Assembly (NCBI RefSeq): GCF_045037415.1 | Contig: NZ_CP173438.1 | Length of the DNA stretch: 64,000 nucleotides | Source of the DNA: Escherichia coli | GTDB lineage: Bacteria; Pseudomonadota; Gammaproteobacteria; Enterobacterales; Enterobacteriaceae | Strand: one strand, 5' to 3' | Part shown: in pieces, positions 33,001 through 36,000 of the stretch | Layout of the letters: every line of letters starts with the position of its first letter | Numbering within the stretch: position 1 is the first letter of the stretch | Made by a program: the position numbers

Positions 33001-36000
33001 ATTAATCTGGTGTGCAGTGCGCTATACGCCGCAAGTAACATGTCTGTTGACCTTTGTCACCGGCGCTGTGGAAGTCGTACTGGTGGCAAATTCGGTGATT
33101 GATATCTCGGTCGGTTCGCCGTTCTCCATTCCGCAAATGTTCTCCGCACGTCTCGGTATTGCCACGATGGCGATATGCCCAATTATGGTTTCCTTTAGCG
33201 TGGCAGCGATCAATTCGCTAATGAAGCAAGTTGCGCTGCGAGCCGATTTTGATTTTCTGACCCAGGTTTACTCACGGTCCGGTCTTTATGAGGCGCTGAA
33301 AAGTCCATCGCTGAAACAGACACAACATCTGACGGTCATGCTGCTTGATATCGACTATTTCAAAAGCATTAACGATAACTATGGACATGAATGTGGCGAT
33401 AAAGTGTTAAGCGTGTTTGCCCAGCATATTCAGAAGATTGTCGGTGATAAGGGGCTGGTGGCGCGAATGGGCGGCGAAGAATTTGCTGTTGCAGTGCCGT
33501 CTGTGAATCCTGTCGATGGCCTGCTAATGGCGGAAAAAATCCGTAAAGGCGTTGAACTGCAACCGTTCACCTGGCAACAAAAAACGCTTTATCTCACGGT
33601 AAGTATTGGCGTCGGTAGTGGTTGCGCATCGTACCGAACGCTGACCGATGACTTTAATAAATTGATGGTCGAAGCCGATACGTGTCTGTATCGCTCGAAG
33701 AAAGATGGGCGCAACCGTACCAGCACTATGCGTTACGGTGAGGAAGTTGTCTGACATCTTTATTTACTCAGAGCGAATTAAATGCAATGTGTTCTACCAC
33801 TTTATGATCCAAGAAAAGGCCTGTTTCCTCGATTAAACCATGATCCGCGCCACACTTTTCTCATAAAACTGCTCATTAATCATCAGGAGTTGATCAAAAC
33901 AGGGGTTCGACGTATTAAAGTTTGCTAACCTGTCGTACCAATTCAAACAGGTTGTATGACTAATCAGAAGGGAACCCATTGTGAAAACACTAAATCGTCG
34001 CGATTTTCCCGGTGCACAGTATCCAGAACGTATCATTCAGTTTGGTGAAGGTAACTTCCTGCGCGCCTTTGTTGACTGGCAAATCGATCTCCTGAATGAG
34101 CACACCGATCTGAATTCTGGCGTGGTCGTTGTTCGTCCGATTGAAACTTCATTCCCGCCGTCACTGAGCACGCAGGATGGTCTGTATACCACCATTATCC
34201 GTGGCCTGAATGAGAAGGGTGAAGCGGTCAGCGACGCGCGTCTGATTCGCTCGGTTAATCGTGAAATCAGCGTCTATAGTGAATACGATGAATTCCTGAA
34301 ACTGGCTCACAACCCGGAAATGCGCTTTGTTTTCTCTAACACCACCGAAGCGGGTATCAGCTACCATGCGGGCGATAAATTCGATGACGCGCCAGCGGTA
34401 AGTTATCCGGCAAAACTGACCCGTCTGCTGTTCGAACGTTTTAGCCATTTCAACGGTGCGCTGGATAAAGGTTGGATCATCATCCCGTGTGAGTTGATTG
34501 ACTATAATGGCGACGCGTTGCGTGAACTGGTGCTGCGCTATGCGCAAGAGTGGGCATTGCCTGAAGCATTTATTCAATGGCTGGATCAGGCTAACAGCTT
34601 CTGTTCTACGCTGGTGGACCGTATCGTTACCGGTTATCCGCGTGATGAAGTGGCTAAACTGGAAGAAGAACTGGGCTACCACGATGGTTTCCTCGACACC
34701 GCTGAACACTTTTACCTGTTTGTGATTCAGGGGCCGAAATCCTTAGCGACTGAACTTCGTCTGGACAAATATCCGCTTAACGTGCTGATCGTTGACGATA
34801 TTAAACCGTATAAAGAACGCAAAGTGGCAATCCTCAACGGTGCGCACACCGCGCTGGTGCCGGTGGCGTTCCAGGCAGGGCTGGATACCGTAGGTGAAGC
34901 GATGAACGATGCTGAAATTTGCGCATTCGTTGAAAAAGCCATCTACGAAGAAATTATTCCGGTACTGGATTTGCCACGCGATGAGCTGGAGTCTTTCGCC
35001 AGTGCAGTCACCGGACGTTTCCGTAACCCGTACATCAAGCATCAACTGCTGTCTATCGCGCTCAACGGTATGACCAAGTTCCGCACACGCATCCTGCCGC
35101 AGCTGCTGGCAGGGCAGAAGGCAAACGGCACACTTCCGGCGCGCCTTACTTTCGCATTAGCGGCATTGATTGCGTTCTATCGCGGTGTGCGTAATGGAGA
35201 AACATATCCGGTACAGGACGATGCACACTGGCTGGAACGTTATCAGCAACTCTGGAGCCAGTATCGTGACCGTGTTATCGGGACCCAGGAACTGGTAGCG
35301 ATTGTGTTGGCAGAAAAAGACCACTGGGAGCAGGACCTGACGCAAGTGCCTGGTCTGGTCGAGCAGGTTGCTAATGACCTGGATGCGATTCTCGAAAAAG
35401 GGATGCGCGAAGCTGTACGCCCGTTGTGCTAATACTCTGAACCCGGTTTCGACCGGGTTTCTTATTCCGCTATATTAGTTACAACATTCTATATGCCTTT
35501 ATCATTAACAGGTGCCACATGCAGCACCTGTTAATGTTGTAATCTTGTAGGTAATTTGTAAGTAGTATCTTGAGAATGTGATCATAATCACGTTTAATAG
35601 GGCGACTTTTCCACGCCTGAAGATAACCATGATTGTTCGTCCACAACAACACTGGCTGCGCCGTATTTTTGTCTGGCACGGTTCAGTATTATCCAAGATA
35701 TCCTCGCGCTTACTACTCAATTTTCTCTTTTCGATCGCTGTTATTTTCATGCTGCCCTGGTACACGCATTTGGGCATTAAATTCACCCTCGCACCGTTCA
35801 GCATTCTCGGTGTCGCCATCGCCATTTTTCTTGGTTTTCGTAATAATGCCGGTTACGCCCGTTACGTTGAAGCGCGAAAACTTTGGGGGCAGTTGATGAT
35901 TGCCTCGCGGTCGTTACTGCGCGAGGTAAAAACGACATTACCGGATTCGGCAAGTGTAAGGGAGTTTGCCCGGCTGCAAATCGTCTTCGCCCACTGTTTA

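Follow-up and report, generated by a model that had tools for sequence, protein, structure and literature searches.

The 64,000-nucleotide stretch of Escherichia coli chromosome analyzed here (the window) carries a 196-bp spacer between uxaB and yneE, within which lies an asymmetric 23-bp sequence on the minus strand, reading ATATAGAATGTTGTAACTAATAT from position 35494 to position 35472. The original prediction had called a Tus-type Ter site with an intact core on this strand, at 35472-35494, and our analysis confirmed both its sequence and its coordinates. The conserved core octamer GTTGTAAC occupies window bases 35485..35478, corresponding to Ter positions 10-17, and the site also contains the extended Ter consensus AGNATGTTGTAACTAA (a 16-mer spanning Ter positions 5-20) as well as the GC(6) pair that supplies the lock cytosine in E. 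coli-type Ter sites, with G6 on the minus strand at 35489 (Table 1).

Table 1 Features of the TerC locus and its surroundings, in window coordinates
Feature	Position	Strand	Remarks
uxaB, tagaturonate reductase	33981..35432	+	Transcription runs toward the permissive face of TerC
Terminator-like hairpin 3' of uxaB	35439..35460	+	9-bp stem, UUCG loop, then UUUCUUAUU
TerC, predicted 23-bp Tus-binding replication terminator	35472..35494	-	Position 1 = 35494, position 23 = 35472
Ter position 7	35488	-	A here, G in K-12; from alignment to K-12 TerC
Ter position 6, G of the GC(6) pair	35489	-	Intact; from window sequence
yneE, bestrophin-family protein	35629..36543	+	Transcription runs away from TerC
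dif, XerCD chromosome-dimer resolution site	39278..39305	+	Exact 28-mer; faced by the non-permissive end of TerC
matS-consensus site GTGACGTTGTCAC	15807..15819		Consensus match
matS-consensus site GTGACGTTGTCAC	25188..25200		Consensus match; same sequence as the 15807 site
matS-consensus site GTGACACTGTCAC	62495..62507		Consensus match

Between uxaB and the Ter site, the hairpin starts seven bases past the uxaB stop codon and ends 11 bp before Ter position 23, and it is unchanged in 7/7 E. coli strains. Its folding energy is -14.3 kcal/mol (z = -2.8), with an interrupted U-tract; because a consensus intrinsic-terminator scan gave no call on this hairpin despite the stable fold, we name it terminator-like only. 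Such a structure plausibly ends uxaB transcription before it reaches Tus-Ter, in which case it would act as a shield for the complex. Upstream of yneE, starting 8 bp past the non-permissive end of TerC, we also observed a perfect 13-bp inverted repeat (35503-35536, ATTAACAGGTGCC...GGCACCTGTTAAT in the minus-strand reading), which forms a strong RNA fold from either strand (z about -5, at -5.2), has no U-tract, and is altered in K-12 and AF16 by substitutions that are not compensated. This repeat may be a protein-binding palindrome. In an Rfam search of the spacer, rliH was the only hit; its 18 bits fall below the gathering score of 100, and we took it as a chance match.

We compared the site with TerC of E. 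coli K-12 MG1655, taken from the genome record (ATATAGGATGTTGTAACTAATAT, NC_000913.3 1609157-1609179, + strand), and found 22/23 bases to be equal, including G6 and positions 8-23. K-12 TerC sits in the same uxaB-yneE spacer, making the window site its positional orthologue, and the two loci also share the hairpin after uxaB, the orientation of the site relative to dif and the replichores, and the role of innermost terminator on the tus side. They differ in the base at position 7 (G7 in K-12, A7 in the window) and in that the window is inverted relative to the K-12 record. Because the 22/23 match, the syntenic locus, and the 16-mer consensus exceed what chance would give, we identify the site as TerC, in agreement with the identity proposed for it originally. 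By its sequence and place, it is the known TerC in its usual position and orientation, carrying a common natural allele, and a predicted Tus site.

The bare octamer GTTGTAAC is present in the 64-kb window in 2 copies against 1.86 expected, which is not significant, and a chance occurrence of this 8-mer, or a decayed pseudo-Ter without Tus function, would be in keeping with such a frequency. The second copy, moreover, is clearly not a Ter site: we considered and rejected a candidate at 6776-6798 on the plus strand (GTACAGATGTTGTAACCATTGTT, with the octamer starting at 6785 and ending at 6792), which has A6 and C18 and departs from the consensus at more than 3 positions. Against this explanation of the site beside uxaB stand its near-complete match to K-12 TerC at the orthologous locus and the extended consensus, for which we found 1 exact match in the window while 100 dinucleotide-preserving shuffles gave an expectation of 0.00. 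Further evidence comes from seven diverse E. coli strains (K-12, CFT073, O157:H7, AF16, TW10722, MS 200-1, and the window), which have the same base at each of Ter positions 3-6 and 8-23 and differ at positions 1, 2, and 7 alone, unlike the surrounding uxaB-yneE spacer, which varies. Synteny and conservation thus led us to reject a chance or decayed origin, to which we assign a probability close to nil. Another candidate, a degenerate ATGTTGTAAT at about 35534-35543 on the plus strand, was likewise rejected: neither G6 nor C17 is present in it, and CFT073 and TW10722 do not conserve it. Both of these Ter-like fragments are oriented opposite to TerC, and we judged them to be chance resemblances.

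The original prediction also held that the site differs from K-12 TerC at one position outside the core. There is indeed one difference, G to A at Ter position 7 (window base 35488), and it does lie outside the GTTGTAAC octamer; the outside-core part of the claim does not hold in the wider sense, as position 7 falls within the Tus-contact region 6-18 and directly adjoins the GC(6) lock pair. To place this allele among natural variants, we counted TerC haplotypes across 5426 complete E. coli genomes using 33-mers, demanding an exact match across the variable bases. The commonest haplotype was ACATAGG (2465/5426), followed by the K-12 haplotype ATATAGG in 1499 of the 5426 and the window haplotype ATATAGA, with A7, in 602 of the 5426, the latter including O25b:H4-ST131. 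Other E. coli TerC alleles (ACATAGG, TTATAGG, and GCATAGG) occupy the same locus and are identical to the window at positions 3-6 and 8-23, but differ at positions 1-2 while keeping G7; the window allele, conversely, retains A1 and T2 and is altered at position 7. The 4-kb stretch around TerC was matched in 5421/5426 complete genomes, 600 of them at an identity of at least 99%, and the closeness of this number to the 602 genomes with A7 suggests that A7 is the marker of a single clade.

Does this substitution alter the barrier? Were A7 to weaken it, whether through a slower lock or a faster release of Tus, forks would often leak through to TerB; the route would be that the base next to C6 on the flipped strand goes from C to T. 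Position 7 does adjoin GC(6), and the confinement of A7 to one clade, about 11% of genomes, would be compatible with a recent and mildly deleterious change, with the intact TerB of the same genome (judged from strain IPCEC42 as proxy) as a possible back-up. Every other contact position is intact, however, and T and G are both found at position 7 of the high-affinity sites TerB and TerC. Goodall et al. 2021 (PMC8347550) have already shown position 7 to vary across phylogroups, and they report it as the sole freely variable position in the contact region 6-18. The same study reports no base-specific Tus contact at this position, whether the complex is bound or locked, and it states, citing Coskun-Ari & Hill 1997, that altering position 7 affects complex stability only slightly, the data being from TerB (PMC8347550). 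We therefore regard a weakened TerC as improbable and think it most likely that the position-7 G-to-A change marks the lineage and is near-neutral.

Among the sites we compared (TerA, TerB, and TerC, with sequences taken from genomes, and TerD-J), K-12 TerJ is the only other one known to us with A7. Because TerJ also carries A9 and is classed as weak or non-functional, it offers no positive precedent for A7.

Next, we considered the direction in which the site would act. Single-molecule and biochemical studies assign the non-permissive face of Ter to the position 1-6 end and the permissive end to positions 19-23, and describe replisomes reaching the non-permissive end as pausing at A4/A5 and stopping at G6, with the breaking of the GC(6) pair letting C6 dock into Tus to form the lock (PMC4499146; PMC8707476). 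In the window, Ter position 1 (35494), next to GC(6), faces dif (39278), and the arrested fork is therefore the one heading to lower coordinates after having passed dif, which is the polarity that had been predicted. The K-12 chromosome has TerC on the plus strand and dif on the minus strand at a lower coordinate, an arrangement equal to that of the window but inverted.

Markers of replichore direction agree with this orientation. All 6 KOPS motifs in the window (GGGNAGGG) point toward dif, the 1 on its left lying on the plus strand and the 5 on its right on the minus strand; Chi strand counts are 10+/4- left of dif and 0+/4- right of it; and GC skew is positive from 6 to 34 kb, near zero from 34 to 48 kb, and slightly negative beyond 48 kb. 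The polarity of KOPS, Chi, and GC skew thus switches at or near dif, consistent with the orientation of TerC, and it follows that the fork of the local replichore runs to higher coordinates and meets the permissive, position-23 face. Over the whole window (1-64000), Chi (GCTGGTGG) is also abundant in its own right, with 18 copies against 1.9 expected and a strand bias that flips at dif. Four minus-strand Chi copies cluster, 3 of them within about 130 bp (58285-58416) and 1 at 62038.

With the opposite polarity, the site would instead stop forks moving toward dif. Some Shigella do carry TerC in an inverted arrangement (PMC8347550), and a misreading of the strand convention would otherwise be the only source of this assignment. 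Here, though, the position 1-6 end faces dif, TerC and dif are on different strands, just as they are in K-12, KOPS and Chi bring the local fork in from the position-23 side, and TerA lies on the opposite strand beyond dif (see below), leaving opposite polarity as a reading that we consider exceedingly improbable. The strand check relative to dif accordingly found no opposite polarity, with the K-12 arrangement, KOPS, Chi, GC skew, and TerA all in agreement on TerC presenting its non-permissive face to dif.

We then examined the remaining elements of the fork trap. The exact dif 28-mer at 39278-39305 lies 3784 bp from TerC, bearing out the roughly 3.8 kb given originally, and the matS site proposed at 62.5 kb corresponds to the match at 62495-62507; two more matS matches (15807 and 25188), absent from that earlier account, bring the matches to the matS consensus in 64 kb to 3, against 0.02 expected. 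The window had further been described as the inner replication fork trap, which holds in part: it contains the TerC wall with dif inside, but the other wall, TerA, lies outside it, as judged from a near-identical genome.

For the elements outside the window, such as tus, we turned to E. coli strain IPCEC42 (NZ_AP026788.1), which has 99.993% identity to window 21500-49498 (28 kb). This genome carries an intact tus gene (2479062-2479991, 309 aa), whose product shares 304/309 residues with K-12 Tus. TerB (AATAAGGATGTTGTAACTAAAGT) lies beside tus at 2480002 on the minus strand, the same strand as TerC at 2532258, and about 52 kb farther from dif than TerC, while TerA (AATTAGTATGTTGTAACTAAAGT) lies at 2712303 on the plus strand, 180 kb from TerC and beyond dif. 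With tus intact in IPCEC42, TerB oriented like TerC, and TerA facing the other way, the fork trap, as judged from this near-identical genome, is complete and of standard E. coli architecture. The sequence, position, orientation, and replichore polarity of TerC can be read directly in the window, and tus, TerB, and TerA in the near-identical genome: TerC turns its non-permissive face to dif and its permissive one to the fork of its own replichore, and it is opposed by TerA beyond dif.

TerB shares with TerC the core and the strand orientation and would act as a back-up barrier, but differs from it at flanking positions 2-4 and 21-22 and in its location, 52 kb farther from dif and outside the window. 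Its position 7 is also polymorphic, with T in K-12 (T7 in 2360/5426 genomes, again counted with exact 33-mers) and G in the window lineage (G7 in 1371/5426). The five residues at which IPCEC42 Tus is changed relative to K-12 are I23A, L105F, T136S, A137V, and L147F. The last of these falls, in sequence, between H144 and G149, which we take to be residues of the cytosine pocket.

The layout of the terminus around TerC differs from K-12 in the distance between dif and TerC, which is 18.4 kb in K-12 and 3.8 kb in the window. The gap is shorter because tam and hipB are not separated in the window by the lsr operon and yneO pseudogene (14.6 kb together). The tam-hipB junction itself was observed at window 37424-37458, where the 14.6-kb K-12 segment with the lsr (AI-2 uptake) operon and yneO is missing, and sequence comparison suggests that CFT073 and MS 200-1 share this lsr-less arrangement. 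On the far side of dif, megablast homology to K-12 breaks off precisely at dif's outer end (39305) and does not pick up again until 39713. Farther on, window 39931-43212 (about 3.3 kb) is absent from K-12 and corresponds to a fimbrial major subunit, chaperone, and usher, all intact; the K-12 counterpart of this fimbrial region consists of a truncated ydeT and the yneL pseudogene.

From published work on K-12 sites, TerC among them, and from the tolerance reported for position 7, we infer that Tus would bind A7 TerC, form the lock, and arrest forks there. We propose that Tus, encoded about 52 kb away beside TerB, would bind the 23-bp TerC asymmetrically, and that the fork of the opposite replichore, having crossed dif and traveling to lower window coordinates, would reach TerC, unwind Ter positions 1-5, and then break GC(6). 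The freed C6 (the plus-strand partner at 35489) would flip into the Tus cytosine pocket, giving a locked complex that would halt DnaB. The local-replichore fork, heading to higher coordinates, would meet the position-23 face and displace Tus. TerC and the opposed TerA, 180 kb away, would together confine fork fusion to the zone that holds dif.

Taken as a whole, the site is very probably the chromosomal TerC of an E. coli belonging to the clade in which O25b:H4-ST131 falls, with fork arrest by Tus as its proposed function and with A7 as a near-neutral marker. We also considered whether A7, together with the Tus of this lineage (L147F) and the G7 TerB, measurably alters the Tus-TerC lock in its efficiency or kinetics in the O25b:H4-ST131 clade, a long shot in our estimation. 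If true, an altered lock would shift the place of fork fusion and the frequency of termination intermediates at dif in a pandemic lineage, and it would matter at dif because dif is just 3.8 kb from the TerC barrier. TerC with position-7 variation is itself an already known element and an ordinary natural allele. Identifying it places the window in the chromosome terminus and tells which way replication runs to the left and right of dif, and it indicates that the fork trap of the window lineage has the standard E. coli architecture, adding little beyond correct annotation.
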